Assembly (NCBI RefSeq): GCF_045802625.1 | Contig: NZ_JBJMQP010000096.1 | Coordinates: 1-37,809, forward strand | From: Hyalangium sp. | GTDB taxonomy: Bacteria; Myxococcota; Myxococcia; Myxococcales; Myxococcaceae | Direction of reading: 5' to 3' | DNA length: 37,809 nt | In this document: piece by piece, positions 19,606 through 37,056 of the stretch | How positions within the stretch are numbered: the first letter of the stretch is position 1 | Layout: each line of letters opens with the position of its first letter | The notes under the pieces: generated by a model | What the model saw: the letters and a program-made list of their open reading frames with translations, nothing else | What the model was told of the DNA's origin: nothing | The model's database searches: none | Translations under genes and position numbers: made by a program

Positions 19606-20145
19606 GTGAAATCTCCCTCGAGCCCCTCTTCTTTTTGGCAGGTCTGGTTGCAGCACAAAGACCATTTGCATCAACAGAGCCTTCGTCTGATGGGAGGGAG
19701 TGAGCCCGATGCGGACGACGCGCTGAACACCGCCATGCTTCGCGCCTTGCAGCGGTTCTCTTCCTCGAGTGGAGAGATCCACAACGAGAAGGCCTGGCTG
19801 AGCCGGATCCTCTACAACGTCTGCATGGACCTTCACCGCGAGCGCCGGCGCCGGGTCGACCCGGAGGAGCTGCTCGAGGAGGCGGAGATCTCGTGGGGCG
19901 CGCCTCTGGAGGACTCACCGGATGAGGTGCTGCTCCAGCGCGAGCGGGCCGAGGAGATCCACGGCTGCATCGAGGCGCTGCCCCTCAACCTGCGCAAGCC
20001 CTTCACGATGCGCTTCCTGCAGGACATGTCCTATGCGGACATTGCCCTGCACCTGCAGCTGACCAACTGCAACGTGAGGAAGCGCATCCAGCTTGCCTAC
20101 GGCATCCTCCGCGTCACGCTGGCGGAGGTGCTCCTCGCGCGCTGA
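19606..20145 (+). CDS. ECF-type RNA polymerase sigma-70 factor
   Basis: Region 2 (DALNTAMLRALQRF, ILYNVCMDLHRERRR) and region 4 HTH (MSYADIALHLQLTNCNVRKRIQLAYGILR) are present. GTG start. GC is lower than in neighbouring genes. Confidence 0.85.
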   Translation: MKSPSSPSSFWQVWLQHKDHLHQQSLRLMGGSEPDADDALNTAMLRALQRFSSSSGEIHNEKAWLSRILYNVCMDLHRERRRRVDPEELLEEAEISWGAPLEDSPDEVLLQRERAEEIHGCIEALPLNLRKPFTMRFLQDMSYADIALHLQLTNCNVRKRIQLAYGILRVTLAEVLLAR

Positions 20146-20154
20146 GCCCAGGCT

Positions 20155-20179
20155 GGCGCCCGCCATGAGGCGAGGCGCC
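20155..20179. terminator. hairpin in the 51-bp convergent gap (candidate bidirectional terminator)
   Basis: ggcgcccgcc-atga-ggcgaggcgcc, about 10 bp with one bulge. Confidence 0.25.
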
Positions 20180-20196
20180 ACCGCCGTTCGTGAGGC

Positions 20197-21081
20197 TCAG
20201 GGGCGCGGATCACCGGCCGGGTCCTCCGGCCGTGGCTCCGGCTTCACCTCGCTGGGCCCAGGCCTCGACTCGAGCCCCGCCTCCATTCGCGCGACCAGAT
20301 CCTGGGCCAGCCGCTCGCTGAAGCCGGACACGAAGCACAGCGCGAGGAAGAAGAAGGACTCTTTGGGGCCGGGAGCTGGCCGCTCGAGGGGGATCAGCCC
20401 GGAGTTCAGCAACGCGATGGAGAAGATCGCGAAGCAGGCCCCCACCACCGGCTTGGAGAAGCCGGCCATCACCATCGAGGCCGGCGTGGTGCCTTGCAGC
20501 TCTTTGAAGTCCTGGATGCGTACCAGGATGCTCGTCACGCTCCCCACGGCGCCGCCCACCACGGCCAGCAGCAGCAGATGGAGGGGGATGCCGAAGAACG
20601 TTTCCCCCGAGGCCATGATCCATTGCTGGCCCAGCACCGCCAGCACCAGGACGACGGTGAGTGAGCCTCCCAGGCCGAGCATCACCTGGACGGAAGGGGA
20701 GTCCGTCTTCAGCACGGCCGCCAGGCGCAAGGGGTGCAACGCATCCGCCAACTGGGACGCGAGCCGCTTGCGCATGTCCCGGGCAAACCGCAGGTTGGGC
20801 TTTTCTCCCAGCAGCGCGATGATCCCCAACTCGAGGCAGTCGACCGCGGCGGGCCCGAGCGTGGACGCCGCCTGCTCGCGCAGGTAGAGCAGCAGCGCCA
20901 GCTCCTCCTGGATACGTGAGTCGAGGGGCTCGGCGAGGCGCTGGCGGAGCCGCGCGTTCAGATCCGAGTCTCCGGGAGGCAAGGGCGGCTCGTCTGGCGG
21001 CGCTTCAGGCTCGGGGAGGGGGGAGGGCGGGGCCAGAGACGAGGCGCCGTCCATAGGGAGCACCTGGAACTGCTCGCTCAT
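20197..21081 (-). CDS. hypothetical polytopic membrane protein downstream of phaC
   Basis: Pro-rich N-terminus and about 4 TM helices. ATG 21081. Lies 86 nt after the phaC stop on the same strand. Confidence 0.6.
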   Translation of the reverse strand: MSEQFQVLPMDGASSLAPPSPLPEPEAPPDEPPLPPGDSDLNARLRQRLAEPLDSRIQEELALLLYLREQAASTLGPAAVDCLELGIIALLGEKPNLRFARDMRKRLASQLADALHPLRLAAVLKTDSPSVQVMLGLGGSLTVVLVLAVLGQQWIMASGETFFGIPLHLLLLAVVGGAVGSVTSILVRIQDFKELQGTTPASMVMAGFSKPVVGACFAIFSIALLNSGLIPLERPAPGPKESFFFLALCFVSGFSERLAQDLVARMEAGLESRPGPSEVKPEPRPEDPAGDPRP

Positions 21082-21167
21082 ATGGGACCTTCTAGGACGA
21101 GAGATGAAAGGCTCTGAAGAAACGTCGCAAGCCTCGAGGCTGTGAACGCTCGCCCCGGGCCGGGCCC

Positions 21168-22931
21168 CTACTCCGGGAGGATGCGCGTCCGCACATAGCG
21201 GCCCGGAGCTGCTTCGATGGGGTGCAACGCTCCATCCCCTGGCGATCGGGCCGGGACACGCGGTCCCGAACGTTCAGACAGCCAGGCGTCCCAGTCGGTC
21301 CACCAGGAGCCCGGCCGCTCCACAGCGCCGGTGAGCCATGCGTCCGCATCCGGCGCCAGTGGCTCTGGCTCGGCCACCCAGTGACGGTACTTGTTCGCCG
21401 CTGGCGGGTTGATGACGCCGGCGACGTGACCGGAGCCCGCAAGGACGAACCGTTTAGGGCCGGAGAAGTGCCGCAGGCCCCGGTACACGGAGCGGAAGGG
21501 AGCGATGTGGTCCTCCCGGCAGGCCTGCACGTAGAGGGGGATGCGTACCCGGCCCAGGTCGAGCGGCGTCTCCCCGAAGCAGAGGGCTCCCGGCTGCACC
21601 AGCCGGTTGTGCAAGTACAGCTCTCGCAAGTAGGTGGCGTGCGCTCGCGCTGGCAGGTGCGTCGGGTCGGAGCTCCAGTACAGGAAGTCGCTCGGGGCTG
21701 GCTCCCGGCCGAGCAGGTAGTTGTTCACCACGAAAGGCCAGAACAGCTCCTTGGCCCGGAGCAGGTTGAAGGTGGTCATCATGTCGACCCCGTCGAGGTA
21801 TCCCCGCTGGCGCATGCTCGCCTCCAGGTGCTCGAGCTGGGGCCCGTCGATGAACGCGCCCAGATCGCCGGGCTCGCTGAAGTCCACCTGCGTGGTGAGC
21901 AGGGTGGCGCTCTGGATGCGCTCGTCTGCCTGGGCGGCCAGGTAGGCCAGCCCCGTTGCCAGCAAGGTGCCACCGATGCAGTAGCCCAGCGCGGACACCT
22001 GCTGCTCCCCGGTGGCCCGGGTGGTGGCCTCGAGCGCGGGCAGCAGCCCACGGAGCAGGTAGTGCTCCAGGTCCACGTGGGCGTGGCTCGCGTCCGGGTT
22101 CACCCAGGAGACGAGGAACACCGTATAGCCGCGCTCCACCGCCCAGCGGACGAAGGAGTTCTCCGGACGAAGATCCAGGATGTAGTACTTGTTGATCCAC
22201 GGAGGGATCACCAGCAACGGGCGCCGGTATACGGTGGCCGTGGTGGGCCGGTACTGGAGCAGCTGGAACAGGGTGTCCTCGTAGATGACCTCGCCCGGTG
22301 TGACGGCCAGGTTCTCTCCCAGCTTGAAGGTGCGGGTGTCCGTCATGCGAGGTGCGAGCCGGCCCTGGCCGCGCTCGAGATCCGTGAGCAGCGCCTCCAG
22401 TCCGGACCGCAGGGTGCGGCCGCCAGACTCCCGCGCGGCGCGGAGCACCTCCGGGTTGAGGACAGGGAGGTTCGAAGGGGCCAGGGCCTCGGTGAGCTGG
22501 CGGGTGTAGAAGCGGGCCTTGAGCGCCGTGGGCCTGTCCACCCCCTGGGCGTTGGCCACCACCTGCTGCAGCCAGTCCGCGCCCAGCAGGTACGAGCGGC
22601 GGGCGAAGTCGAAGAAGGGGTTCTCCGTCCACGCGGGATCGCGGAAGCGGCGGTCCTCTCGCGGCGGCGGCGCGGTCTCGCCAGGGCGCGCCAGGGTCTG
22701 ACAGAGGCTCGCGGAGCGCTCACACAGATCACTCCCCGCCGTCAGCAGCTGCTCGGGGTTCATCGCCGTCCGGAGGAGCACCTCCAGGAAGGCCCGCCGC
22801 ATGTGCCTCAGGGAAGCGTCCTCCGCCGCCTCACTGGCCCTGTGCTCGAGCCAACGCGCCAGCACCCCGCAGGCCCGGGCCATGGCTCGGACCTGCTCCA
22901 GCCGCTGTGCATCTCCATCGTCGGCATCCAT
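21168..22931 (-). CDS. phaC: class I poly(3-hydroxyalkanoate) synthase
   Basis: Lipase box GYCIGG and an alpha/beta-hydrolase core with conserved His/Asp; class I length (587 aa). ATG 22931 with SD AGGAAGGAG 9 nt upstream. The track start (TTG 22964) is less likely. Confidence 0.9.
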   Translation of the reverse strand: MDADDGDAQRLEQVRAMARACGVLARWLEHRASEAAEDASLRHMRRAFLEVLLRTAMNPEQLLTAGSDLCERSASLCQTLARPGETAPPPREDRRFRDPAWTENPFFDFARRSYLLGADWLQQVVANAQGVDRPTALKARFYTRQLTEALAPSNLPVLNPEVLRAARESGGRTLRSGLEALLTDLERGQGRLAPRMTDTRTFKLGENLAVTPGEVIYEDTLFQLLQYRPTTATVYRRPLLVIPPWINKYYILDLRPENSFVRWAVERGYTVFLVSWVNPDASHAHVDLEHYLLRGLLPALEATTRATGEQQVSALGYCIGGTLLATGLAYLAAQADERIQSATLLTTQVDFSEPGDLGAFIDGPQLEHLEASMRQRGYLDGVDMMTTFNLLRAKELFWPFVVNNYLLGREPAPSDFLYWSSDPTHLPARAHATYLRELYLHNRLVQPGALCFGETPLDLGRVRIPLYVQACREDHIAPFRSVYRGLRHFSGPKRFVLAGSGHVAGVINPPAANKYRHWVAEPEPLAPDADAWLTGAVERPGSWWTDWDAWLSERSGPRVPARSPGDGALHPIEAAPGRYVRTRILPE

Positions 22932-22979
22932 CCGAGGCCGCTCCTTCCTGGCAAAGCCGCGCAAGGTGCGCGTCCGCCC

Positions 22980-23708
22980 TCAGAACATGTGCTGCCCACC
23001 ATTGATGGTGAGCGTGGAGCCGGTGATGAAGCTGGCCTCGTCGGACGCGAGGAACACCACGGCCCGGCCGATCTCCTCGGCCCGGCCAAGCCTCCCCACC
23101 GGGATCCGGGAGCGGATCTGCGCCAGGACCTCTGGGGCAACGGCGCGCACCATGTCCGTCTCGATGTAGCCGGGGGCGATCATGTTCACGGTGATGCCGC
23201 GGGCCGCGCCCTCGCGCGCCAGGGCCAGGGTGAAGCCATGCATGCCCGCCTTGGCCGCCGCGTAGCTCGTCTGCCCGAGCTGGCCCGTCTGCCCATTGAT
23301 GGAGCCGATGTTGATGATGCGCCCGAAGCCGCGCTCGCGCATCGCGGGGAGGACCGACCAGCACATGTTGAAGCACGAGGTGAGGTTGGTCTGCAGGACG
23401 TCGTGCCAGTGCGCGGCGGTCATGCGGTGCAGCATGGCGTCCCGAGTGATGCCGGCGTTGTTCACGAGCACCTCGATGGGGCCGCAAGCCTCGGCGATCT
23501 TCTTCACCTCCTGTGCGCAGTGCTCCAGGTTGGACACGTCGAACTGGAACGCGGGGATGCCCGTGCGCTCGGAGAACTCTTTCGCCGACTGCTCGTTGGA
23601 CTTGTAGGTGACGGCCACGCGGTAGCCCTGCTGCTTCAGCGCCTCGGCGCTCGCGGCGCCAATGCCGCGCGTGCCACCCGTGACCAATGCCATGCGCCCG
23701 CTCATCAT
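22980..23708 (-). CDS. phaB: acetoacetyl-CoA reductase (SDR family)
   Basis: MMSGRMALVTGGTRGIG with SDR motifs NNAG and YAAAKAG; 242 aa. SD GAGG precedes ATG 23708. The track ORF adds 115 non-coding-like codons upstream. Confidence 0.9.
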   Translation of the reverse strand: MMSGRMALVTGGTRGIGAASAEALKQQGYRVAVTYKSNEQSAKEFSERTGIPAFQFDVSNLEHCAQEVKKIAEACGPIEVLVNNAGITRDAMLHRMTAAHWHDVLQTNLTSCFNMCWSVLPAMRERGFGRIINIGSINGQTGQLGQTSYAAAKAGMHGFTLALAREGAARGITVNMIAPGYIETDMVRAVAPEVLAQIRSRIPVGRLGRAEEIGRAVVFLASDEASFITGSTLTINGGQHMF

Positions 23709-23760
23709 CTTTCCTCGTTGCTGGGAGATCCGCGCCTGAAGACGGAGCAGCCCGCCGGTT

Positions 23761-23796
23761 TGTGAATCCGCCGGTGCGCGCCTCCACCGATTCACA
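23761..23796. promoter_or_regulatory. inverted repeat TGTGAATC-N20-GATTCACA in the phaB/patatin divergent promoter region
   Basis: Half-sites at 23761-23768 and 23789-23796. Confidence 0.25.
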
Positions 23797-23933
23797 GCCA
23801 GGTGGATCCAGCCGTCCCTCTGCTTGCTGTCCCGTGGAGAGGAGTCCTTGGAGGGTAGTGGTTGGGAGATGCCATCCCCCTCTCCGCGGGGCGGCACGAC
23901 ACGCGCACCGCGCTCACCCGTCAGAGGATGCAC

Positions 23934-25115
23934 ATGACGCAGCAATCCACAGGTCAACCTCAACCGCAGATCATCGCCGTCTTCCAGGGAGGAGGGGCCC
24001 TTGGGGCCTACCACGTCGGGGCCTACCACGCCCTGGAGGAAGCCGGGCTCCACCCGGATTGGATCTCAGGCATCTCCATTGGGGCCTTCACCGCCGCGCT
24101 CATCGCCGGCAACCGCCCGGAGAAGCGGCTGGAGCGGTTGGAGGAGTTCTGGCGGGAGATCTCCTGGCCTGGCACCGAGTGGGGAGCCGCGCTGAAGGGG
24201 CCCTACCGCCAGTTGTTCAACCTCGGCAGCCACATGACGAGTCTCCTGTTCGGCCAGCCGGGCTTCTTCGTCCCTCGGGTGGTTCCTCCCTCGATGGCCC
24301 TCCCAGGCTCGCTCGAGGCGCTGAGCTTCTGCAGCACGCGGCCCATGCGCACGACGCTGCAGCGGTTGGTGGACTTCGACTACATCAACTCCCGTGCGAC
24401 GCGGCTGAGCCTCGGGGCCACCCGGCTGAGTGATGGGCAGATGGTGTTCTTCGACAACACCCGCGAGGCCATTGGCCCGGAGCATGTGCTCGCCAGCGGA
24501 GCGCTCCCTCCGGCCTTCCCGCCGAGCCGCATCGACGGCGAGCTCTACTGGGACGGCGGCTGCGTCACCAACATGCCGCTCAACGCCATCCTCGATGATC
24601 CTCCTCGGCGGCGCACGATCATCTTCATGGTCGATCTGTTCGACGCCGCGGCAGAGCTGCCGCGCACCCAGGATGAGGCGCATTGGCGCATGAGGTCCAT
24701 TCAGTTCGCGGGTAGGACCGCCCACCATGTCGACCAGTTCGCCACCGTGTGGAACCTGCGTCGCGCGGCGACCCAGGCGGCGAGGCAGGCGTCGGCGTCT
24801 TCTCCTGTCTCCTTCAGCGACGCGCCCGCCGCGGAGCCCGCGCCGCGGCTGGACATCATCCACATCAGCTACCAGCGGGGCCGAGATCAGATCGCGGCCA
24901 GCGTTGGCGAGTTCTCACGGGCCTCCATCCAGGAGCGCCGGGCCGACGGTTACCGCGACATGAAGCAGGCCCTGGCGGCTGCCCCGTGGATGCAGGCCAG
25001 CCCCGAGGGGATGCCGCAGGCGTTCAGCGATTCGGAAACGGACCGCTCGGGCGAGGGCGCGGTCGTCCATCGCGTCAACGGCGGGAAGGTCCAGAGCAAG
25101 GTTCACATGCCGTAA
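23934..25115 (+). CDS. patatin-like phospholipase-family hydrolase (candidate PHA-granule lipase or depolymerase)
   Basis: Oxyanion GGGALGAYHVGAY, nucleophile elbow GISIGA and catalytic-Asp motif YWDGG. ATG 23934 with SD GAGG 6 nt upstream. The track start (TTG 23862) is less likely. Confidence 0.85.
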   Translation: MTQQSTGQPQPQIIAVFQGGGALGAYHVGAYHALEEAGLHPDWISGISIGAFTAALIAGNRPEKRLERLEEFWREISWPGTEWGAALKGPYRQLFNLGSHMTSLLFGQPGFFVPRVVPPSMALPGSLEALSFCSTRPMRTTLQRLVDFDYINSRATRLSLGATRLSDGQMVFFDNTREAIGPEHVLASGALPPAFPPSRIDGELYWDGGCVTNMPLNAILDDPPRRRTIIFMVDLFDAAAELPRTQDEAHWRMRSIQFAGRTAHHVDQFATVWNLRRAATQAARQASASSPVSFSDAPAAEPAPRLDIIHISYQRGRDQIAASVGEFSRASIQERRADGYRDMKQALAAAPWMQASPEGMPQAFSDSETDRSGEGAVVHRVNGGKVQSKVHMP

Positions 25116-25522: not shown

Positions 25523-25556
25523 ATGCCCCGGGCGAGTCTCCCTTCGCCCGGGGCAT
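25523..25556. terminator. perfect 13-bp GC hairpin between the convergent phasin-like and C25 genes
   Basis: atgccccgggcga-gtctccct-tcgcccggggcat, followed by cgtctttcg on the + strand. Confidence 0.45.
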
Positions 25557-25579: not shown

Positions 25580-27277
25580 TCAGCTCTGCTTCGCGCCCGC
25601 GCGGGCCAACGCCTCGCGGCCTCCTGCCAGATAGAGCTGCTCCCATTGCAGGAGTTGCGTGGGAGTCACCCCCAGCTTTTGAGCGGACTCCAGCCGGCGC
25701 GCGGCCAGCTCCAGCACCGCACGCTCGAGCTCCTCGTGGCCCTGGGGCTTGCTCGGAGGAGTAGGGGCCGGTGGCGGCGCCGTCAGGGAGAGCAGCCCCA
25801 AGGTGGACGGGAGGGTGCTGGCCGGCGCCGGCTGTGCCAGCGGCAGCCGCACCGCGGGATCCCCAAGGAGGATGTAGCCGCCCAGATCCTGGCGGAGCAT
25901 CCACAGGTGGGCCCGCTGCAGCGGATCCACTGGTGAGGGCCGCCCGGCGCCCCGGGCCTCCTCTTCCTGATCATACAGCGTGGTCAGCTCGAGGTTGGCC
26001 TGGTGGCCCCCCCGCAGCAGCCACCCCAGGCCCACTCCGGCGCGGCGTCCCCGCGCGAACTGTTGCAGCGGCTCCAGGAAGCGGGAGGTCTTGCCGCGGC
26101 GGCTGTCGCGATCCTGGAAGCCATACGTCCAGGCCAGGTCCACGTGGCCGAAGACCGCCAGCGGCCCGTTCGGGTTGGCCAGCGCGGCCTGGGGCAGCGC
26201 GGCGACGAAGGGCCGCTCTCCGGGCTGCGGGAGCGAGGAGGTGATGGAGTCGAGCCTCCCGCTGAACTGCCCCCCTGCCTGGAGCTGCCGCAGCCAATGC
26301 TGGAACGCGCTCCGCGACGGAGTGCCCGCGCCGAAGCAGGCGAAGAGGAACCAGATGCCGCCCGGCAGGAAGGGCCGGCTGGCCAGGGAGGCGCCGTCCA
26401 GGTGTAGTCCTTCCCCCAGGTTCATCGCGCCCTGGAGCGCGAGCTTCTCGTCCGTGCTGCGCCAGCCGGCGCGCGGGCTGCCGAGCCCGTGGCTCATGCT
26501 GAAGAGGATCCCAGGCCGTGGCTGTGATGCCTGCTCGAGCAGCTCGGTCACACCGCCCTTTCCGGGCCCCCCGAGCTCTAGCAGCTCCCGCATGGGGAAT
26601 CTGCCCAGCTCACGGGCCTGCTGGGCGGCGACGAGGCCTGGCGCCACCAGCGCCTGGTAGCCCGTGGAGGTCGCCGCGGTGCCGTCATGGACCGTGAAGA
26701 AGAGCGCGCGTGCCTGCTCCTCGGTGGAGGGCTCGCGCTCCCAGCGGAGCACCTTCGCCACGTAGGACTCGTAGTCCTGCTCGCGCCGGAAGGCCAGCCG
26801 CCCGACGAAAGCACTGCTGGCCGCGCACTGCTGCAGCTCGAAGGGCACCTGGTCGAAGTCCCCGAGGAACAACAGGTAGCGCGGCCGATCCGCCACCGGC
26901 ACCGACTCGTCATCGAGCACGGTGCGCACCCAGCGGGAGAAGTGCTCCAGGCTCCGGGCCTCCGCGGCCAGCCCTGGCTTCACCCGGTAGATGCGGACAG
27001 GGTGACCGCCCTGATCCTCCTGCCGCCGCCGGCGCAGGGGCTCGATGAGGGCGAGCAGCCGGTCGCCTTCGGGCCCCTCGGGAGCGACGAGGCCCCAGCG
27101 CTGCGCGGGCAGTGAGTTGGGATCCTCGCCATCATCCCAGAGGTGGCTCTCCTCCCGGGCCTCCTGGGACTCGCTGGGAGGGGCCTGCGCGGCGGCTGCC
27201 GCTGGCACCCCTTGGGGGGTTACGGGTTCGTGGGAATCAGCGTGGACAAGTAACAGCTCCAGGTTCTCCGTGCTCAA
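25580..27277 (-). CDS. gingipain-like (peptidase C25, clan CD) cysteine peptidase with no signal peptide and a C-terminal HTH
   Basis: C25 blocks YLLFLGDFDQVPF, catalytic His ILFSMSHGLGS, catalytic Cys IWFLFACFGAGTP, and GGYILLGDPAVRLPL. After a Pro-rich linker the C-terminus reads LELAARRLESAQKLGVTPTQLLQWEQLYLAGGREALA, which resembles the IS3 OrfA HTH. TTG start at 27277. Confidence 0.7.
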   Translation of the reverse strand: MSTENLELLLVHADSHEPVTPQGVPAAAAAQAPPSESQEAREESHLWDDGEDPNSLPAQRWGLVAPEGPEGDRLLALIEPLRRRRQEDQGGHPVRIYRVKPGLAAEARSLEHFSRWVRTVLDDESVPVADRPRYLLFLGDFDQVPFELQQCAASSAFVGRLAFRREQDYESYVAKVLRWEREPSTEEQARALFFTVHDGTAATSTGYQALVAPGLVAAQQARELGRFPMRELLELGGPGKGGVTELLEQASQPRPGILFSMSHGLGSPRAGWRSTDEKLALQGAMNLGEGLHLDGASLASRPFLPGGIWFLFACFGAGTPSRSAFQHWLRQLQAGGQFSGRLDSITSSLPQPGERPFVAALPQAALANPNGPLAVFGHVDLAWTYGFQDRDSRRGKTSRFLEPLQQFARGRRAGVGLGWLLRGGHQANLELTTLYDQEEEARGAGRPSPVDPLQRAHLWMLRQDLGGYILLGDPAVRLPLAQPAPASTLPSTLGLLSLTAPPPAPTPPSKPQGHEELERAVLELAARRLESAQKLGVTPTQLLQWEQLYLAGGREALARAGAKQS

Positions 27278-27451
27278 TGCGTGTCCTCCGGCAAGGAGCG
27301 CCCAAGAGGTGGGCGCTTGCCAGGAGGACGCGGCAGGCCCTGGCCGTGTGAGTCATTGGAGGAGACATGGGTGAGACGCGCGAGCCCGGGTGATGGTGAA
27401 CTCCGCTCGCTGCCCTCATGGTGGGCAGCCGCGGTCACCGCCAGGCTTTGT

Positions 27452-27469
27452 GTGTGATCGCATTCACAC
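27452..27469. promoter_or_regulatory. CRP/FNR-type palindrome GTGTGA-tcgcat-TCACAC
   Basis: Perfect TGTGA-N6-TCACA. It lies in the divergent intergenic region, 73 bp upstream of ATG 27542. Confidence 0.4.
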
Positions 27470-27541
27470 CGTGGCGCTGTTTGGCGTCCTGGGAGCGTAG
27501 CACCCGGCACATGCCGGCAACTCAACCCCTAGGAGGAAGTC

Positions 27542-27853
27542 ATGTCATCCGCAGCCCAACTCTCTCATTACATCATCGCGTTCGCGGGCGCCGCGCGCAC
27601 CGCTCAGAAGCTCATGTCCTCGGGCATGGATCCGATGACGATCGCCGAGTACTACTTCGAGGTGAACATCACCTCGGACTTCGAGCTGAAGAGCGAGACG
27701 GACGTCACCCTCAACATCTGGCGCATGAGCATCAAGGAGAAGCTGACGCTCGACTACAAGGAGCACATGGGCATCACCGTGAAGTGCACCATCAAGCCCT
27801 CGGCCGTGCTCGCCGCCCAGGCCAGCGGTGGCGGCGGCGGCGCGGCGTCCTGA
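27542..27853 (+). CDS. small hypothetical protein A (103 aa)
   Basis: Perfect SD AGGAGG 5 nt upstream of the ATG and high GC3, but overall GC is lower than genome average. No known motif. Gly-rich C-terminus. Confidence 0.7.
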   Translation: MSSAAQLSHYIIAFAGAARTAQKLMSSGMDPMTIAEYYFEVNITSDFELKSETDVTLNIWRMSIKEKLTLDYKEHMGITVKCTIKPSAVLAAQASGGGGGAAS

Positions 27854-27962
27854 TAGGGCACGCCTCTCCCTGACAACCCAGATCTGACAATCAGCACCGC
27901 CGGTGTTCCCTCTGGGAGCGCCGGCGGTGCTGGCACGCCAGCTACCCCTCATTGGATCTCCC

Positions 27963-28409
27963 ATGGCAAAGCCTAACCAGACCACCGATCACGCCCAGGT
28001 TCTCATCCACGATCTCATCCTTGCCGTTCAGTCCTCGTTGGACATCGCTGAGGATACGGCCCGCAAGCACTATTCCTTCTCTGTCGCGGAGCTGGAGGTC
28101 TCCGCCAGCTTCGACTTCGAGATGACGGAGCAGGACAACGACATTCCGGACGACAAGCCGCAGCCCAAGCGCTGGTTCTCGCTCTTCGGCGGCAAGAAGG
28201 AGCCGGCCTCGCGCGCACGCACGCACGACTTCTCGGAGAAGGACTCCAGCAAGCTCACCGTCCGCATGCTGTTCCGGCCTGGCGGCAAGCTCCTGGTGTC
28301 TTCGACGCCGCCGCTGTCAGAGGGCTCGACCGCTCCGGCCGAGGATCCGCCCAGCCAGCCCGAGGCCGCCGAGCCCGCTCCTCCGCCGGCGGGAAAGCGC
28401 TCCAAGTAG
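27963..28409 (+). CDS. small hypothetical protein B (148 aa), paralog of protein A with an insertion and a Pro/Glu-rich tail
   Basis: Shares an N-terminal helix with A, plus HY.F.V / SFDFE / W / LTV blocks (A: YYFEVNITSDFELK..IWRMS..ITVKC; B: HYSFSVAELEVSASFDFEM..RWFSLF..LTVRM). ATG 27963 is preferred over the track start 27903. Confidence 0.55.
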   Translation: MAKPNQTTDHAQVLIHDLILAVQSSLDIAEDTARKHYSFSVAELEVSASFDFEMTEQDNDIPDDKPQPKRWFSLFGGKKEPASRARTHDFSEKDSSKLTVRMLFRPGGKLLVSSTPPLSEGSTAPAEDPPSQPEAAEPAPPPAGKRSK

Positions 28410-28421
28410 CACCCAGCAGAG

Positions 28422-28453
28422 GGAGCCCGCGGCGGAGGCTGGCCGCGGGCTCC
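28422..28453. terminator. perfect 12-bp GC hairpin between convergent genes
   Basis: ggagcccgcggc-ggaggctg-gccgcgggctcc. Confidence 0.45.
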
Positions 28454-28459
28454 GTGCCG

Positions 28460-29461
28460 TCACTTCGCCTGGAAGAGCTTGCGCTTCTCGAAGGCGTCCT
28501 TCACCGCGTCCGAGACCTGGTGCCCCCGCGCGGCCATCAGCCCCGCGACATCCACGGGCTTGGACACCGCGCAGACACCGGTGGGGTTGATCGCCGTCAT
28601 GTACCCATCCCCGCAGTCCGCGCCGTGAGCCTTCAGGATCGTGCCGAACTGCAGCTCCGCCATCAGCCGGAGCAGGTGGTGGGTCCGCTCGACCTCGAGC
28701 TCGGGCGACTCGCCGCGCACCTGATGATCCCAGTGGATGAAGCGCAGCGTGCCAACCGGCGTGTAGTTCCAGTGCATCAAGGCCTGGAAGCGCTTGCCGA
28801 TGTCAGGCACCTGGCGGAGCAGCTCGAGGAGCGATGTCGAGGGGGGCAGGTGCGGGACGGCGTCGTCCTGGAACTCGAAGCGCTGGTGGATGTTGTGGAA
28901 CGGGTAGGCCTTGGCGAACCCCACGTCACCACACTTGGGGGCGGCGAAGGTGAAGATGCCCGCGGGCTCGATGCCCTCGAGGCGGGCGAACCGCATGGCC
29001 GCGAGCGTGGCCATGGCCCCGCCCTTGTTGTGGCCCGTGAGGTAGAGGGGGAGCGTCTTGTCCCCAGCCTGGCGCAGCGCCCGGACCTGCGGCAGGAGCC
29101 GGGACCAGAGCGCATCGAGCGAGCCCCAGAACCCCGCGTGCAGCGCCCCGGGGATGCCAGGCACGGAGATGAGCTCGGCGTGGAAGTCGTTCATCCAGTC
29201 GAGCGCGGGGGCCATGCCTCGCTCCGTGGGAGGCAGGGTGCCGCGGAACGCGACGACCACGGCGTTGAGCGCGCTGCTGCGGCCCACCAGGCACGCGTCG
29301 ACGTGGGGCTTCCCGGCGCCTCCGACGATGGCGACAGGGGCGATGAGTCCGGAGGCGCTGTCATAGGGAGGATAGGAGGAGGAGAACGAGCCATTGGATT
29401 GGACGGCATAGCTGTAGACACTGGCACAGAGCATCTGGCCTTCGAGGGTGGGTGCGGGCAT
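28460..29461 (-). CDS. lipase class 3 / DUF2974 (Mbeg1-like) alpha/beta-hydrolase homolog with Asn replacing the nucleophilic Ser
   Basis: LYLTGHNKGGAMATLAA corresponds to G-H-S-[LK]-G-G in lipase_3/DUF2974. ATG 29461 with SD AGGAAG. No signal peptide. Confidence 0.7.
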   Translation of the reverse strand: MPAPTLEGQMLCASVYSYAVQSNGSFSSSYPPYDSASGLIAPVAIVGGAGKPHVDACLVGRSSALNAVVVAFRGTLPPTERGMAPALDWMNDFHAELISVPGIPGALHAGFWGSLDALWSRLLPQVRALRQAGDKTLPLYLTGHNKGGAMATLAAMRFARLEGIEPAGIFTFAAPKCGDVGFAKAYPFHNIHQRFEFQDDAVPHLPPSTSLLELLRQVPDIGKRFQALMHWNYTPVGTLRFIHWDHQVRGESPELEVERTHHLLRLMAELQFGTILKAHGADCGDGYMTAINPTGVCAVSKPVDVAGLMAARGHQVSDAVKDAFEKRKLFQAK

Positions 29462-29627
29462 GAGCGCTTCCTGTTTGGGGTTGAGATTGGGGGGAGCCCA
29501 ATCGCAGGGGAAGACGCCGCGGGAATGCACCTCGTGAAAGAGCGAGCCGCTTCACTGCGGGAGCCGGCCGCACGTCCTTCAGCACAGCCACCCATTGAAG
29601 GGGGCCTTTGCGCTGGAGAAGCCGCGG

Positions 29628-30350
29628 ATGCCATTGTCGACCAAGCCCGAATACCCTCACGACTACAACCCAGACAACACTTGGAAGAGCCTCGTACCCA
29701 GGGGTGGCAATCCCGCCGCCTGGTTCAAAGGGGCCGCTGGCATGGCCAGCCTCATCCAGGAGCGTCAGGGGGTGGGCTTCACCGAGGGCCCCATCTACCG
29801 GGTGCCCCTGGGCCGCTGTGTAGCGTGCCTGGTCCAGTTCCCGGTCGCCGCGCTGACGATCGAGAGCATCATCCATTACGACACCTACGCCGGGAAGGCG
29901 CTCGGGCCGCAGGATCTGGTGAACATGCACAACGACACGTCCAACCTGACGTTCCTGTGCAAGGGCTGCCACGCCAGCAAGGATCTCGAGCCGAGTACGC
30001 TCTATGACTGGATCATGGAGACCGTGCGGCTCGAGGAGCACGGGACGCGGCTGAGCCAGGTCCAGGTGGTGAGGCAGGCCTGGCTGGACATGGAGCGGGT
30101 CGCGGCGCAGCAGTTCCTCCACATGGACCTGACGGGCCTGCAGCACGTGCTGGCCGACCCCAACCTCAGCCCGAGATCCCAGGCGGCCGCGCGAATGGCT
30201 CGCATCAGCCTGGCGGGCCAGAAGGCGCTCAATGACGCGCACTTCCTGTTCGACTTTCATCTGGCGAAGGATGTGGAGCTGCTGGCCCACCAGCTCGAGG
30301 CCGAGGCCAAGCTCCACTTGCAGCCCGGTAAGTCCAAGCCCGTTCCGTAA
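29628..30350 (+). CDS. HNH endonuclease-domain protein
   Basis: GRCVAC...IIHYD...VNMHNDTSNLTFLCKGCHASKD fits the C-x2-C/H-N-H core, followed by a helical C-terminal domain. ATG 29628; the track gives TTG 29595. Confidence 0.7.
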   Translation: MPLSTKPEYPHDYNPDNTWKSLVPRGGNPAAWFKGAAGMASLIQERQGVGFTEGPIYRVPLGRCVACLVQFPVAALTIESIIHYDTYAGKALGPQDLVNMHNDTSNLTFLCKGCHASKDLEPSTLYDWIMETVRLEEHGTRLSQVQVVRQAWLDMERVAAQQFLHMDLTGLQHVLADPNLSPRSQAAARMARISLAGQKALNDAHFLFDFHLAKDVELLAHQLEAEAKLHLQPGKSKPVP

Positions 30351-30367
30351 GGGGCGCAGGGGCGGGT

Positions 30368-30396
30368 GGCCCTCCTCGCCGCGATGGAGGAGGGCC
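30368..30396. terminator. perfect 10-bp hairpin between the convergent HNH and GH19 genes
   Basis: ggccctcctc-gccgcgatg-gaggagggcc. Confidence 0.4.
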
Positions 30397-30406
30397 AGCC
30401 GGTGCT

Positions 30407-31006
30407 TCAGCGGCTCAGCAGCTTCAGCGCCTGCTGGTAGTACGCATCACGAGACGACTTGCCATTGTAGCCGCCGTTGATGCGGTAGGTGATTGCGTCG
30501 AGGTTGCCCTCGTCCGCGTACTTGTTGAGGTGATGGCTGGTCCAAAACCAGACGGCCGTGCGGAACCCCACCTCGGGCTCGGCGGCGCGGTTGGGGTTGT
30601 TCTCCAGATCGATGTCCAGTGCGGCCCCCGCGGCGCGGTAGTTGGCGCGGCCGGTGATCTGGATCGGACCGCGGCCCTTGTAGCGCACGCCGTCGCCCGG
30701 TTGGACGTTGCCCAGATCCCGCCGCCCCTCGTAGGCCTTCCCCGAGGCCAGCTCCTCGAAGTAGCGGAGCTCTCCGCTCTCGTGAGCGAGCTGCGCCAGG
30801 AACGCCGCCCGCCGGCGAGGGGTGTCGATCCCTCCCTCGGCCATGGCCGCATTCAGGTGGGGCAGCAGCGCGATGGCGTGCGCCTCGGGCAGCTTGCGCA
30901 TGAGGGCGCGGAGCTGCTCCAGCGTCACTCCTTGCGAAGTGCTCGTCGCGGGTGCTGCGGGGGGGATAGGCGTGTCGGGGGAGGGGGAGGAACCGGAGGA
31001 TGACAT
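30407..31006 (-). CDS. glycoside hydrolase family 19 (chitinase/endolysin-like) peptidoglycan hydrolase, with no signal peptide
   Basis: FLAQLAHESGELRYFEE carries both catalytic Glu, and YKGRGPIQITGRANY is present. A Pro/Ser linker lies N-terminal. ATG 31006; an alternative GTG 31111 would leave only 6 nt after the upstream gene. Confidence 0.8.
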   Translation of the reverse strand: MSSSGSSPSPDTPIPPAAPATSTSQGVTLEQLRALMRKLPEAHAIALLPHLNAAMAEGGIDTPRRRAAFLAQLAHESGELRYFEELASGKAYEGRRDLGNVQPGDGVRYKGRGPIQITGRANYRAAGAALDIDLENNPNRAAEPEVGFRTAVWFWTSHHLNKYADEGNLDAITYRINGGYNGKSSRDAYYQQALKLLSR

Positions 31007-31117
31007 GGGGAGCTCTCGGGCTTGGCGGCCACAGCAGAAGGTGGACCTGATGGATGCCTGGAAGACGCCTGGACCAGAGCGCTTGTGACTGGCGGACGGG
31101 GCCTGGAGCACTCTGCC

Positions 31118-34100: not shown

Positions 34101-35860
34101 GGCTCCTGTCCCACGTCCTGGAGGAGCCGATCCACCAGCCCCGGCTCGAACGTCAGCCCCACCTTGTGCGCCGGGCCCACGATGGCGGCGCGGAGCTCCT
34201 CGCCTTGAAGCTCCGTGACGAAGAGGCGGTGAGCGTCGGAATACACCACCGCGTCCAGCCGCGTCCCGGCCTCATCCACCACCAGCTCTCCGCAGCGCCC
34301 GAGATAGTCCACCCGGAGCGTGGCGAGCACGATCACCTGCCGCTCTGGATCTCGCGACAGCTCCCAGAGCGTGGCGGCCAGGGCTCGGCGTGCCTCGGGC
34401 TCCGTCAGCTGGGTGAAGAGCTCCTCGAATGGATCCACGAGCAGCAGCTGGCGCGGACAGGAGGACTGGCGAAGCTGCTGGAGCGTCTCGGTGGGCCCTT
34501 GCCCCGGGCGAAGCACCCGGACCTCCCAGTCGGAGGCCGGGAGCGCATGGAGCAGTCCGGCGAGGGCGAGCGAGGACTTGCCGCTGCCCGAGGCTCCCGC
34601 CAGCACCTGGAAGCGCGGCCGCCGCCCGTCCAGTGACTCCTGGATGCGCTGGAGGAGCTCCTGTAGGAGCCGCTCGCGCCCGAAGAAGAACCGGCGATCG
34701 GTTTTCTGGAAGGGCAGCAGGCCGCGGTAGGGCCGGATTGCCACCGGGCGTGTATCACTCCCATCCTCCGCTCGGGCGTAGAGCTGCACGGAGGCGTAAT
34801 CCAACGACGAGCTGTCGCGTGCGAGCTCGCGCCGGGCCTGTCCCATGGCCTCCTCGAGCGAGCAGGGCTGCGCCAGCAGAGAGCGGTAGAGGCTCGCGGT
34901 GAGCACTGAAGAGCCCGCGATGGACAGGGGCAGACGGGAGGCCACCACCGCCTGGATGCCCGCGCGGTGGAGCGCCTGGGCCACGCTGCCCAGGTGGTTG
35001 CCCGCCAGGCCCGCGCCGCTCTGGCACGCGGCGAGCACCACCAGCCGCAGCGTCCCCGCATGGGGCGCCAGCAGGTGGCGCAGGGTGGCGCCGTCGATGA
35101 GCTCGGGCTCGCCCCCCTCCCACGAGGCATCCCAGAGCAGGCCATAGGTCTGGCCCCGCCGGCTGCCGTGACACAGCAGGTGGAGGATGGAGATGGGTTC
35201 TCCAGGACGGGCCAGCGCCTCCCCGAGCGCCGCGAGCGAGACGTTCGGCAGGACGTCGCGGGCGGGATCAAACGGATGATCGCCCTCCTCGCAAGCCTGG
35301 CTCAGTGCGCGCAGGTGGGGCTTGTCCGGGACATGGCCTCCCGCGGCGGACCAGGCGTAGAGGATGCGCCCGCCCCGCGGTGTCCCGGCCAGAGGCGCGG
35401 CGTGCGTGTCGGGCCACTCGTAACGGATGAGGACACCGGGGAGCTCGGCCAGCGCTTGCCCGGAGGTCCCCAGCGTCAGCAGCTCCCAGGGCAGCGCGTA
35501 AAGCTCGGCCGCGGCGAAGCGGAAGGTGAGGTGCACGGGGCGCCCTTGCTCCACCGCGGCGAGGATGTCGCGTGCGTGGGCATTCCAGCCCACCCCCTCC
35601 AGAAAGGTCCGGAGCCGGTCCCCCAGGCGCTGCACCACGCTTCGGTCTGGCTGGAGCCGCTCCAGCTCCGCCAGGTCCGCCAGCAGCGGGGGCTCCCAGG
35701 AGAGCGCCGCTCGCGCATAGCTCCCATGCGCCCGGCGCAGCAGGTACTCCTGGGGCTCGAGCCGGAAGTGGAAGGGATCTCCCGCATCCTGGCCGCGCAC
35801 CAGCTCCAGGAGCAGCTCGAGCGGGGCGGCCTTTCTGATCACCGGGGAGGACATGTTCAC
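31118..35860 (-). CDS. CHAT (caspase-like) protease-STAND NTPase-TM-WD40 multidomain protein (1580 aa)
   Basis: CHAT His/Cys dyad at ISILHLLCHG and LVVLAACQSG. P-loop GASGSGKSS, Walker B LLLVDPFEE. One hydrophobic helix LLGLLAAAIGVAAAMAGLAW at aa 803-822. About 14 WD40 repeats from aa 895 to the end. The GTG start overlaps the SBP stop (GTGA); ATG 35854 is the alternative. Confidence 0.85.
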   Translation of the reverse strand: MNMSSPVIRKAAPLELLLELVRGQDAGDPFHFRLEPQEYLLRRAHGSYARAALSWEPPLLADLAELERLQPDRSVVQRLGDRLRTFLEGVGWNAHARDILAAVEQGRPVHLTFRFAAAELYALPWELLTLGTSGQALAELPGVLIRYEWPDTHAAPLAGTPRGGRILYAWSAAGGHVPDKPHLRALSQACEEGDHPFDPARDVLPNVSLAALGEALARPGEPISILHLLCHGSRRGQTYGLLWDASWEGGEPELIDGATLRHLLAPHAGTLRLVVLAACQSGAGLAGNHLGSVAQALHRAGIQAVVASRLPLSIAGSSVLTASLYRSLLAQPCSLEEAMGQARRELARDSSSLDYASVQLYARAEDGSDTRPVAIRPYRGLLPFQKTDRRFFFGRERLLQELLQRIQESLDGRRPRFQVLAGASGSGKSSLALAGLLHALPASDWEVRVLRPGQGPTETLQQLRQSSCPRQLLLVDPFEELFTQLTEPEARRALAATLWELSRDPERQVIVLATLRVDYLGRCGELVVDEAGTRLDAVVYSDAHRLFVTELQGEELRAAIVGPAHKVGLTFEPGLVDRLLQDVGQEPGSLPLLQYALDQLWEGRDGGQLTHRAYAAIGGVAGALTRAADRLYAALSPAEQRQARRLLVELVDFQHGASPGTRRRAMLEHVRPTAQEARDAFEQVLEALLTARLLIREEGQAGEEWLQLSHESLIRTWPALVEWALADRERLQHFRELQAWARSWLAHREDADGGAPYLLSGSRLGYSQRVLERYDEDPGADVLQLIDASVASAESRQQAARRRLLGLLAAAIGVAAAMAGLAWNARRHEAQEQRERQEAQRYALRARDLIRLGVARTMLHENPTLALLTLREIQEPSQLQGWDRDVSEVLQQPLSRAVLRGHQEAVVYVEVSPDGQRVVTASRDGTARIWRTDGEGDPLVLAGHEGPVYHATFSPPDGALVLTSSHDGTARLWRTSDGHLLREFRHRGVVQWGAFSPDGRQIATASRDGMARVWSLETVAEPLVLRHQGPVSTVAFSPDGKRLVTASQDGKARILSFDAPASPRELPHAATVTSALFDPEGTRVLTVARDGIARIWPVSGLGGPVLLKGHQGELTTARFSPDGQWVVTASVDNTARLWRADGSGEPRVLRGHQGAVRMATFSGPLGDRILTVSSDTTARLWSVHDSEPPRILRGHRSTLLWGAFGPDGKQMVTGSVDATARVWRMDEPRDSRPLPGQGSFVWSVAFSPDGARVATASQDGAVRLWSDDGRHMRVLQGHTQDVLSVAFSQDGKWLLTASRDGTARIWPSDGHAAGRILVSQQEPLFGAAFSPDGQWVALASGASTTRIVRVDDPRRAILLEGHGAQVRSVSFSADGRRVLTASQDGTARIWSTEGNLLATLYGHDDWVLSAAFHPQDPTRVLTASQDGTARIWRVEGGKVHGVQFVARHEAPVLWAAWSPDGSRFVTACADARVRLWLASDTREPHLVLSSHEGQVTSAAFSPQGEDVQLLTGSTDGSARLWRPREPLPMDSLQERLQAASSACLTAWERQNYLGDLPAPARQASASCEQTHDRTPPAPRP

Positions 35861-37056
35861 CGGAGCGACTTCGGCTGGACGGTCTGGCCTTCCTGGCGCA
35901 CCAGCCTGCCATCCGGGTCGTAGATGGAGCTGGCCAGCTCCAGGAAGCGGAAGGGGATCTTCATGTCGAGCCGGCGGGCCTTGCGGAAGTGGATGGCGAG
36001 ATCCGGCGGCGAGATGATGCCCACGGGGAGCCGCGACGCCGGCAGCCTGCTGTCCAGGATGCTCTGCACATAGAGCGCGCCCAGCTGCCCGGCGCTCTTG
36101 AAGGGCACGCCGATGGACATCACCGCACTGGCATCCCCCTCGCGCACCACCTCCCGCACGGAGCCGAGCACGGGGATGCCGGCGGAGAGGCGGTCAATCC
36201 TCTCCAGCTCGTCGTACACGGTCGAGGAGGTGGTGATCCAGAACAGGCTGTGCCGGGCCCCCGGGTCGATCTGGCGCATCGCGCGAGCCATTTTTGGGAG
36301 CTGCTCCGAGAGGAGTGTGCTCGCGGTGGCCTTGCCATTCACGGCCAGCTCCAGGAGCTGGAATCCGTCGCGGGCCGCCATGCGGCGCATCCCCTCCGCT
36401 TCGACCTCGACGGCGCTCTGGTTGCGCCGATCGTAGAGCACCGTCATCACCTTGAGAGGCCCCATCAGCTCCTGCAGGTAGTGGAGCTGCGCCTCCGGGG
36501 GGATGCTCAGCGAGACGAAGGCCATGTTGGACGGCCGGGTCCGCTGGGAGGCTCGCTCCTCGAAGCCAAGCCACAGCTCCGGATCCTTGCAGAGCGCCAC
36601 CACCGGCGTGGGCTGGTTGCCGAAGCGGTTGTAGAAGAACCGCGCCGCGTCCGAGCCCATGGCGATGATCAGGTCGAACTGCCCGGAGTCCGCCAGCGCC
36701 AGCATCCGCTCGTACTCGTCCCGGCTGCTGTCGAGCTTGTACAGCGTGAGCTCCACCGGGACGCCCTTGTCCCGGAAGACGGGCAACATCCCCTCGAGGA
36801 TCCAGTTGAGGCTGCTCTGGGCCACGGTGAAGAGGACGAGCACCTCGCGCGCTGGCGTGTGAGGATCGGGAGAGGACTCGGGCGAGATGCGGATCCGTCC
36901 CCGGGACGCCTCCAGCTTCCAACCCTTGCTCGCTTCGCCGGGCAGGGTGAGCCAGTGCGAGAGATCCTCGGGCTGGGCCTGGACGGGACCGGAAGCCGCC
37001 AGTGCCAGGAGCAGCCCCAGCAGCCTCCAGCTTCGCGCAGGGGAGCATTCACGCAT
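35857..37056 (-). CDS. ABC-transporter-type periplasmic substrate-binding protein (ABC_sub_bind / COG2984-like)
   Basis: Sec signal peptide MRECSPARSWRLLGLLLALAASGPVQA, then a two-lobed SBP. ATG 37056 overlaps the MFS stop by 8 nt. Confidence 0.7.
   Translation of the reverse strand: MRECSPARSWRLLGLLLALAASGPVQAQPEDLSHWLTLPGEASKGWKLEASRGRIRISPESSPDPHTPAREVLVLFTVAQSSLNWILEGMLPVFRDKGVPVELTLYKLDSSRDEYERMLALADSGQFDLIIAMGSDAARFFYNRFGNQPTPVVALCKDPELWLGFEERASQRTRPSNMAFVSLSIPPEAQLHYLQELMGPLKVMTVLYDRRNQSAVEVEAEGMRRMAARDGFQLLELAVNGKATASTLLSEQLPKMARAMRQIDPGARHSLFWITTSSTVYDELERIDRLSAGIPVLGSVREVVREGDASAVMSIGVPFKSAGQLGALYVQSILDSRLPASRLPVGIISPPDLAIHFRKARRLDMKIPFRFLELASSIYDPDGRLVRQEGQTVQPKSLR

Follow-up and report, generated by a model that had tools for sequence, protein, structure and literature searches.

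The contig NZ_JBJMQP010000096.1 of the myxobacterium Hyalangium sp. (assembly GCF_045802625.1) supplied the 37,809 nucleotides analysed here, which we call the window, and in which positions 25,580 to 31,117 hold a run of six genes next to a gene for a CHAT-nSTAND1-WD40 protein. As the original prediction described them, the six genes alternate in strand and encode a gingipain-fold (C25-like) cysteine peptidase, two small proteins (sm1 and sm2), an alpha/beta-hydrolase of the Lipase_3 family with a Ser to Asn change, a zinc-finger HNH-motif protein and a GH19 muramidase; the domain assignments hold, and the GC content of third codon positions (GC3), which selects one frame per gene in this 67-68% GC DNA, supports the open reading frames (ORFs). 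The predicted lack of signal peptides was confirmed, with a signal-like N-terminal hydrophobic segment in none of the six proteins (0/6) and one present in the neighbouring periplasmic binding protein (SBP). We consider it about 60% probable that the interval is not one island, and that it is instead a mosaic of three independent units. Unit A is a conserved NLR-like system of the C25-like peptidase, the CHAT-nSTAND1-WD40 protein and the GH19 muramidase; unit B is a portable pair of probably paralogous Trypco2/Pepco-like small proteins, by their sequences most likely a membrane beta-barrel module; and unit C is a strain-specific insertion of the Lipase_3 (S145N) and HNH genes, with native codon use, between the terminators of sm2 and GH19.

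The C25-like protein has the fold of the gingipain catalytic domain. Its own match to PF01364 covers only short stretches (26.3 bits, with a cutoff of 23), and many of its homologs carry a precomputed match to PF01364. The C25-like family is large, with more than 1696 matches and several paralogs per myxobacterial genome. In a comparison of 38 homologs His263, located in SMSHG (26486-26500), was invariant and Cys314, located in FACFGAG (26324-26344), was present in at least 90%; the two form a putative catalytic dyad that presumably corresponds to His211/Cys244 of RgpB. The marks of secretion or surface location that go with characterised gingipains and PorU, namely a signal peptide and a type IX C-terminal domain, are missing, and the protein is a cytoplasmic relative and not a gingipain proper. 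The protein ends in a helical hairpin, whose borderline match to HTH_28 was discarded as it lies below the cutoff and in a region missing from the Corallococcus orthologs. The gene is monocistronic.

The second protease of unit A is the N-terminus of the STAND protein, which is CHAT itself, with its dyad motifs in LLCHGS (35162-35179) and LAACQSG (35015-35035), so that both proteases retain their His/Cys motifs. We regard the CHAT-nSTAND1-WD40 protein as the NLR-like centre of unit A. No effector-associated domain (EAD) or Death-like domain was detected on the six island proteins at Pfam-level sensitivity, and the adaptor role once envisaged for them, by way of a shared domain of this kind, is thereby not borne out. 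PADLOC-DB 2.0 recognises the STAND protein through domain-level matches (SAVED_CHAT and HEAT-ARM), and beyond a marginal endonuclease match on the HNH protein (E 0.008) it returned nothing for sm1, sm2, the C25-like protein, the lipase or GH19, and no defined defence system.

The GH19 protein matches PF00182 (E=7e-14, 52.6 bits with a cutoff of 25.5), and its best matches in the PDB and among the PHROGs are endolysins (PWe2, E 4e-35, and phrog_181, E 1.6e-59). It contains the motifs AHESGELRYFEE, GRGPIQITGRANY and FRTAVWFW, the first with two catalytic-type Glu nine residues apart, which motif knowledge identifies as the likely catalytic pair. Orthologs place the start at Met36 (31006), and the limit of the island at 31111 proposed earlier is an ORF artefact; the gap to the STAND gene is therefore 111 bp and not 6 bp. 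GH19 is the last gene in the string MFS-SBP-CHAT-STAND-GH19, and the 111-nt spacer before it is unstructured, with no terminator-like fold (z +0.85). At the other end of the STAND gene, the SBP stop overlaps the CHAT-STAND start by 4 nt (35857-35860), and in one related contig (L032, see below) a 775-aa MFS gene overlaps the SBP gene (14973-16178) in the same manner; why the translation of this membrane/periplasmic pair should be coupled to that of an NLR-like protein is not obvious.

Syntenic loci were retrieved by anchoring on the patatin gene. The order PhaC-PhaB-patatin-small gene-C25-sm1-sm2-GH19-CHATSTAND-SBP(-MFS) is kept, with 70-89% amino-acid identity, in Cystobacter fuscus (L002), in Corallococcus (L005) and in a Logan assembly contig (L032), and the whole block from C25 to SBP is missing at the patatin site in Archangium (L003) and Vitiosangium (L004). 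The comparison with sister genomes suggested in the original prediction thus splits the interval, with the Lipase_3 and HNH genes lacking from all three relatives that keep the remainder. Outside this synteny, a CHAT gene was found within a few genes of a C25-like paralog in five of the five further contexts inspected. In Hyalangium versicolor (L011) two C25-like paralogs adjoin a CHAT gene; in Minicystis (L012) a C25-like gene, a 432-aa gene and a CHAT-nSTAND1 gene are flanked by DUF4157/eCIS_core proteins; in Myxococcus (L030) and Cystobacter ferrugineus (L031) a CHAT-nSTAND1(-WD40) gene is divergent from a series comprising an extracytoplasmic-function (ECF) sigma factor, a zf-HC2/CHAT anti-sigma factor, a gene of about 250 aa and a C25-like gene; and in Vitiosangium (L033) an ECF sigma factor, a 268-aa gene and a C25-like gene are followed after 7 bp by CHAT-nSTAND1-WD40 and, after a further 91 bp, by a GH25 gene. 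Neither sm1 nor sm2 occurs in any of these five loci (0/5), the Vitiosangium trio included. Among the papers searched, none combines the terms gingipain, CHAT domain and STAND.

The Vitiosangium locus is particularly informative for unit A. Its STAND protein is 41% identical to that of the window over residues 9-1563, CHAT dyad included, and its GH25 protein lacks a signal peptide and matches endolysin PHROGs. A slot about 90-110 nt 3' of orthologous STAND genes is therefore occupied by a lysozyme in both cases, GH19 in the window and the non-homologous GH25 in Vitiosangium, and that muramidases of two different folds take this position is the strongest evidence that the cell-wall hydrolase belongs to the system. 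Directly downstream of the GH25 lysozyme, at 18406-21641 of the Vitiosangium contig, lie six RebB genes (R-body, 'killing trait'). R-bodies are membrane-rupturing polymers, which makes their position beside a cytoplasmic lysozyme suggestive.

The small proteins sm1 and sm2 have a different distribution. In the window neither belongs to any Pfam, NCBIfam, PHROG or PADLOC family or matches PF19631 (Trypco2) even at E<=10, and tblastn found no match to sm1 in the phage and plasmid collections. Sm1 combines a helix at the N-terminus with three beta segments of strongly amphipathic character (19 beta-amphipathic windows, with 1.0±2.1 in shuffled sequences) and is highly conserved, with identities of 87-95% among myxobacteria, 71-73% to homologs of the Gammaproteobacteria Pleionea and Spartinivicinus, and 53% to one on a Rickettsiales contig; an exhaustive search of 1.84e9 proteins with a hidden Markov model recovered only 30 representative clusters. 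In sm2, a helix at the N-terminus and beta strands precede an invariant FRPGGK (28272-28289), after which the last 39 residues form a tail with 26% Pro and 21% charged residues; the protein evolves much faster than sm1, a word-indexed search yielding only 16 relatives. When the surroundings of sm1 homologs were inspected in four protein look-up contigs, fifteen metagenome contigs and one viral contig, a directly adjacent sm2-like gene was present in virtually all loci whose length allowed a judgement, at least 18 in number and of 25-68% GC (iterative jackhmmer on a small ORF set). Three of these sm1-adjacent proteins align to the full Pfam model of Trypco2 with 25.5, 23.8 and 20.6 bits, one of them above the cutoff of 24.2. 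In hhalign comparisons, a diverse sm1 alignment matched the sm2-like family with a probability of 79% (E 1.5e-5, 89 collinear columns) and the non-myxobacterial, Trypco2-hitting subset with 74%, the two E-values ranging from 1.5e-5 to 2.8e-5 and an unrelated control giving 0.5%; with low-diversity alignments the probabilities were 0.3% and 8.6%, so the signal appears only after remote members have been added. These comparisons suggest that sm1 and sm2 are probable paralogs related to Trypco2/Pepco, and together the amphipathic strands of sm1 and the Pro-rich tail that follows FRPGGK in sm2 lead us to read them as a putative paired, Pepco-like membrane-barrel module.

Elsewhere, sm1-sm2 pairs are found mostly among housekeeping genes, or beside a gene of the PD-(D/E)xK-like or TPR kind. 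The former, whose product has about 180 aa and the motif 'GGWEVW … D … (E/V)ELK', accompanies the pair in six loci and has no Pfam, PADLOC or PHROG match; the motif may resemble those of PD-(D/E)xK nucleases. In four other loci a TPR protein of about 230 aa replaces it. One pair lies on a plasmid-like contig by an Eco47II restriction enzyme and ParDE, and another on a viral contig by tape-measure-like/tail genes. A C25-like and a CHAT gene flank the pair in the window and in the three loci syntenic with it, and at least 12 other sm1-sm2 loci have no protease neighbour. The occurrence of the pair without proteases, together with its absence from the five other C25/CHAT loci, argues that sm1-sm2 are independent of unit A.

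Several conserved non-coding elements accompany the pair. In four orthologous myxobacterial spacers between the C25-like and sm1 genes CATTCACAC is invariant (27461-27469, about 75 nt upstream of sm1) and is followed by a conserved CGTCCT…ACGTAG…CCCGGC; the CATTCACAC element may be a promoter or an operator. The sm1 start is preceded by the ribosome-binding site AGGAGGAA, and the spacer of the window is 85 bp longer than those of the orthologs, at its C25-proximal end. The stem-loop between sm1 and sm2 is far stabler than shuffled sequences (z=-4.7, with 0/200 folding as well) and is kept in the four orthologous loci, with compensatory changes in six pairs. It may be an attenuator or a processing/stability element that sets the sm1:sm2 ratio.

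Unit C comprises the Lipase_3 and HNH genes. Both are lacking in L002, L005 and L032 (3/3), the full syntenic loci in which the site is covered, and in C. fuscus homologs of the two flanking terminator hairpins lie only about 35 bp apart, which identifies 28453-30359 as an insertion of 1.9 kb specific to the window, with two genes in divergent orientation. The hydrolase matches PF01764 (E=4e-19) and was rightly called a pseudo-lipase, as the position of the nucleophile is occupied by Asn145 in GHNKGG, opposite GHSLGG of the Rhizomucor lipase; Asp (DDAVPH) and His (KAHGAD) of the catalytic triad are still in place, but with the Ser of GxSxG lost the Ser-Asp-His triad is incomplete. The Asn145 codon AAC (29027-29029) is one transition away from AGC (Ser), and the nearest homolog in the plasmid collection, from Kovacikia (43.5% identity), has an intact GHSKGG. 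Judged from these sequences, the hydrolase has probably been inactivated by a single, possibly recent transition, unless the change is an assembly error; the source genome being metagenome-assembled, AAC could stem from variation within the population or from an error in the consensus sequence, rather than from a pseudoenzyme that has become fixed. The Kovacikia gene (plasmid pA, L029 5251-6876) follows a gene of 223 aa at a distance of 49 bp, and less than 3 kb away the opposite strand has a gene for a 1008-aa WD40-repeat protein. The HNH protein scores 17.4 bits with PF01844, below the cutoff of 21.4, and has the motif CVAC (29817-29828) … MHNDTSNLTFLCKGCH, with HN…N…CKGCH at 29925-29972 and a helical C-terminal half; no relatives were found in the PDB or, by tblastn, in the phage and plasmid collections.

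A role for the hydrolase in unit A was considered. The accessible part of the work of Kaur et al. (PMC7159879) describes the caspase-superfamily peptidase as always accompanied by a neighbouring alpha/beta-hydrolase gene, and one such hydrolase has been reported in a preprint to be a caspase-activated zymogen. This pairing makes Lipase_3 a tempting partner; however, it occurs only in this genome, belongs to another hydrolase family and has lost its nucleophile. No evidence was found in the data examined for a link of Lipase_3 or HNH to the NTPase.

The total GC content is indeed lowered, as originally observed, in sm1 (0.625), sm2 (0.653) and HNH (0.649), but the horizontal acquisition deduced from it does not follow. 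The deficit lies in codon positions 1 and 2 and thus reflects amino-acid composition. In a leave-one-out analysis of synonymous-codon likelihood, with the 26 other genes of the window as the reference, all six genes have a GC3 of 0.86-0.91 and z-scores within ±1 standard deviation. With GC3 normal and synonymous codon use native, foreign origin on the basis of low GC was rejected, and composition provides no evidence of recent foreign acquisition. There are no tRNA genes in the window and no integrase domain among the ORFs scanned in it.

All the features of the locus are listed in Table 1. Three convergent gaps each hold a GC hairpin, of which two are perfect, as had been claimed for all of them, and the third is 93% complementary. 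The entire gap between the phasin-like and C25-like genes folds at -36.9 kcal/mol, and its hairpin is likely a bidirectional terminator. Rfam and sigma-70 promoter scans revealed nothing relevant within the island interval. Further to the left, an Rfam L17 ribosomal-protein leader (RF03132, 39.9 bits) precedes the ORF 5448-5855 and marks that part of the window as core chromosome. Upstream of the polyhydroxyalkanoate (PHA) cluster there are two genes for eukaryote-type protein-modifying enzymes, one protein-arginine-deiminase-like (PF03068) and one of SET with a Rubisco-LSMT substrate-binding domain, the latter syntenic in L002, L005 and L032. The ORF 18602-19381 has the most atypical synonymous codon use in the window (z -2.8, GC3 0.81), no Pfam match and a 56%-identical counterpart in C. 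fuscus. A weak match of the phasin-like protein to TRADD_N (E 0.01) was judged to be due to chance.

Table 1. Features of the Hyalangium window and of related loci. Positions refer to the window unless another contig is named.
Feature	Position	Strand	Remark
L17 ribosomal-protein leader	5361-5417		Rfam
Protein-arginine-deiminase-like gene	14321-16369		
SET + Rubisco-LSMT substrate-binding gene	17299-18675		
PhaC	21168-22964	-	
SDR/PhaB-like gene	22980-24053	-	
Patatin	23934-25115	+	
Phasin-like gene, 123 aa	25133-25504	+	
Hairpin, 13-nt arms, 100% complementary	25523-25556		convergent gap phasin-like/C25-like
C25-like (gingipain-fold) cysteine peptidase, 565 aa	25580-27277	-	GC3-supported ORF
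Divergent intergenic region C25-like/sm1	27278-27541		alignment of four orthologous spacers
sm1, 103 aa	27542-27853	+	GC3-supported ORF
Intercistronic stem-loop sm1/sm2, ~20 bp	27892-27932	+	fold compared with shuffles; ortholog comparison
sm2, 148 aa	27963-28409	+	GC3-supported ORF
Hairpin, 12-nt arms, 100% complementary	28422-28453		after sm2; left edge of insertion
Lipase_3 alpha/beta-hydrolase, 333 aa (from Met24)	28460-29461	-	GC3-supported ORF
Zinc-finger HNH-motif protein, 251 aa	29595-30350	+	GC3-supported ORF
GC hairpin, 15-nt arms, 93% complementary	30363-30401		after GH19; right edge of insertion
GH19 endolysin-type muramidase, 199 aa	30407-31006	-	GC3-supported ORF
CHAT-nSTAND1-WD40 protein, 1580 aa	31118-35860	-	beyond the island as first proposed
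ABC_sub_bind-type SBP, Sec signal peptide	35857-37056	-	
MFS gene			upstream of SBP gene; only its end in the window
sm1/sm2 stem-loop in relatives	L002 ~13806-13848; L005 ~13566-13606; L032 ~8925-8965		
~180-aa neighbour of sm1-sm2	L006 10436-10960; L013 613-1380; L023 264-806; L024 3796-4338; L025 654-1196; L028 4368-4931		

The picture that emerges retains one part of the NTPase-centred system originally postulated, as the C25-like peptidase and GH19 are recurrent partners of CHAT-nSTAND1-WD40, and sets apart sm1-sm2, Lipase_3 and HNH. By analogy with known systems, the WD40 propellers of unit A would bind a trigger, NTP-driven oligomerisation would activate the N-terminal CHAT protease, CHAT would act on or together with the gingipain-fold enzyme as a second clan-CD protease, and the muramidase, presumably co-transcribed and free of a signal peptide, would be the terminal cell-wall effector. 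In unit B, most likely a two-subunit membrane pore, sm1 would be the slowly evolving barrel subunit, and sm2 would be the subunit that regulates it, evolving fast and ending in a Pro-rich tail that can be removed. The pair would be autonomous in most genomes, and its location inside unit A in the Hyalangium/Cystobacter/Corallococcus lineage would be due to chance.

The closest parallel to unit A is the SAVED-CHAT/PCaspase system, a type III-B CRISPR/CBASS hybrid. In Haliangium ochraceum a second protease, caspase-like in kind, is activated through cleavage by the activated CHAT, and the gene cluster includes a sigma factor gene (bioRxiv 10.1101/2023.06.23.546230). Both systems have a sensor-fused CHAT, a separate clan-CD cysteine protease and a myxobacterial host, the sigma factor has its counterpart in the ECF sigma genes by the C25-like gene in L030, L031 and L033, and the logic proposed here, from CHAT activation to a second protease, would be the same. 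However, the sensor here is made up of an nSTAND1 NTPase and WD40 propellers, in place of a SAVED domain that binds cyclic oligoadenylates, the operon ends in a muramidase gene, and CRISPR or cyclase genes were not found at this locus. Unit A also resembles the CHAT/nSTAND1 conflict systems that Kaur et al. predicted in multicellular bacteria (PMC7159879, PMC8195603), which, in the accessible portions of these papers, are built around an NTPase that has a caspase-superfamily peptidase at its N-terminus and repeat sensors at its C-terminus, are enriched in myxobacteria and include relatives with predicted peptidoglycan-attacking effectors (PMC7159879). In contrast to what those portions describe, no EAD was detected here at the sensitivity of Pfam and the caspase/alpha-beta-hydrolase pairing is not conserved, Lipase_3 being strain-specific; a gingipain-like partner and an endolysin-type terminal gene are not mentioned in the same portions (PMC7159879, PMC8195603).

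Unit B is best compared with the Pepco proteins (Trypco1/Trypco2) of Avs/STAND systems. Pepco becomes membrane-permeabilising once an associated protease removes its Pro/charged C-terminal tail (bioRxiv 10.1101/2025.11.14.688446; PMC7159879). Sm1 and sm2 share the size of about 100-150 aa, the N-terminal amphipathic helix, the beta strands and, at the C-terminus, the Pro/charged tail, the sm2 family has members that match Pfam Trypco2, and in the window the pair lies between two protease genes. On the other hand, sm1-sm2 are always two paired paralogs, whereas Trypco1 and Trypco2 have been described as genes that occur singly and exclude each other; the conservation of sm1 is far higher, and it has no Pfam match; and most sm1-sm2 pairs have no protease neighbour and are joined by a recurrent third gene, PD-(D/E)xK-like or TPR, the pore role being here a prediction from sequence features. 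The window further recalls the phage holin-endolysin cassette, in that a signal-peptide-less endolysin-type enzyme (GH19 or GH25) would need a membrane lesion on its way to the cell wall. It differs from the cassette in that no holin with transmembrane helices is present here, GH19 is chromosomal, with native codon use, and follows a STAND NTPase gene, and the pore role of sm1-sm2 would be conjectural.

Several observations weigh against the division into three units or against parts of it. L030 and L031 share one arrangement in two genera, which reduces the further C25/CHAT contexts to about four independent ones. The MFS and SBP genes, which overlap the STAND gene, have no role in the model. 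A cytoplasmic lysozyme requires a path to the wall, which unit A alone does not offer, and myxobacterial GH19 lysozymes are known as secreted predation enzymes (PMC10875029). For unit B, the AlphaFold2 monomer of sm1 has a confidence (pLDDT) of 51 and was unusable for a fold search; the link of the window sm2 to Trypco2 is transitive, a direct profile comparison giving a probability of 28% (E 6e-4); and most sm1-sm2 pairs lack the adjoining protease of the Pepco proteins described so far. As to unit C, absence from relatives alone may still be compatible with a role of Lipase_3 and HNH in the system.

The most serious competitor of the mosaic is an integrated system for suicide lysis, in which CHAT, the gingipain-like protease or both would trim the tail of sm2 (e.g. 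after RPGGK), the sm1/sm2 pore in the inner membrane would act like a holin and let GH19 reach the peptidoglycan, and Lipase_3 and HNH would be extra effectors. It would account for the position of sm1-sm2 between two clan-CD protease genes and by an endolysin without a signal peptide, in an order kept in four loci, and it would provide the membrane lesion that a cytoplasmic endolysin requires. Gingipain-type and many other clan-CD proteases cut after Arg or Lys, and the invariant RPGGK at the junction of the sm2 domain and tail matches this specificity; Pepco/Trypco2 proteins themselves reportedly form pores that a protease activates, and have a Pro/charged tail open to cleavage. However, the Vitiosangium protease-STAND-lysozyme trio and the other C25/CHAT loci outside the synteny do without sm1-sm2, the pair occurs in other phyla with no protease nearby, and Lipase_3 and HNH are restricted to a single genome. 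Moreover, the argument depends on the gene order of one lineage in which the flanking housekeeping synteny is also kept, so that it may reflect a single inherited event, and we consider integrated lysis unlikely.

Even less probable is the absence of any conflict system, with GH19 a predation lysozyme exported non-classically (e.g. in outer-membrane vesicles), the C25-like and CHAT-STAND proteins regulatory or developmental proteases, sm1-sm2 structural or stress proteins and the order of the genes mere vertical synteny, which would agree with the bacteriolytic extracellular GH19 enzymes LlpM and C25GH19B and a paralog without a signal peptide predicted to be non-classically secreted (PMC10875029), with the native codon use, with the housekeeping flanks (PHA synthesis and ribosomal protein genes) and with the failure of PADLOC to find a known system beyond domain-level matches of the STAND protein, but under which the replacement of GH19 by GH25 after orthologous STAND genes is hard to attribute to chance synteny, C25-like and CHAT genes would still co-occur in several differently arranged loci, and sm1-sm2 would still appear beside a restriction enzyme and ParDE or beside tail genes in the manner of a typical mobile defence/toxin cassette.

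The mosaic of three units thus remains the preferred reading, under which the locus varies known kinds of systems (CHAT-STAND conflict systems, two-protease cascades and Pepco toxins) and constitutes no new category. A bolder combination, which we hold to be doubtful, would see in unit A an undescribed and widespread myxobacterial NLR-like module, in which CHAT-nSTAND1-WD40 drives a gingipain-fold executioner and kills from within by a GH19 or GH25 endolysin, and in sm1-sm2 a phylum-spanning two-subunit Pepco-like pore toxin recruited as a 'holin' in the Hyalangium/Cystobacter/Corallococcus lineage; if true, an immune pathway would have rebuilt the phage holin-endolysin lysis device under protease control. 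Independently of this, the locus illustrates that a run of effector-looking genes by an NTPase can be a mosaic, in which the conserved partners of the NTPase are two of the six genes. With the sm1-sm2 pair, the recently characterised Pepco pore toxins would gain a form that is paired and does not depend on a protease, and sm1, whose identity from Myxococcota to Gammaproteobacteria is about 70%, has no family annotation. If the trio of C25-like peptidase, CHAT-nSTAND1-WD40 and muramidase works as a unit, it would be a second example of a two-protease cascade, here with a gingipain-fold enzyme, and NLR-like systems would gain a new output, the hydrolysis of peptidoglycan from inside the cell.

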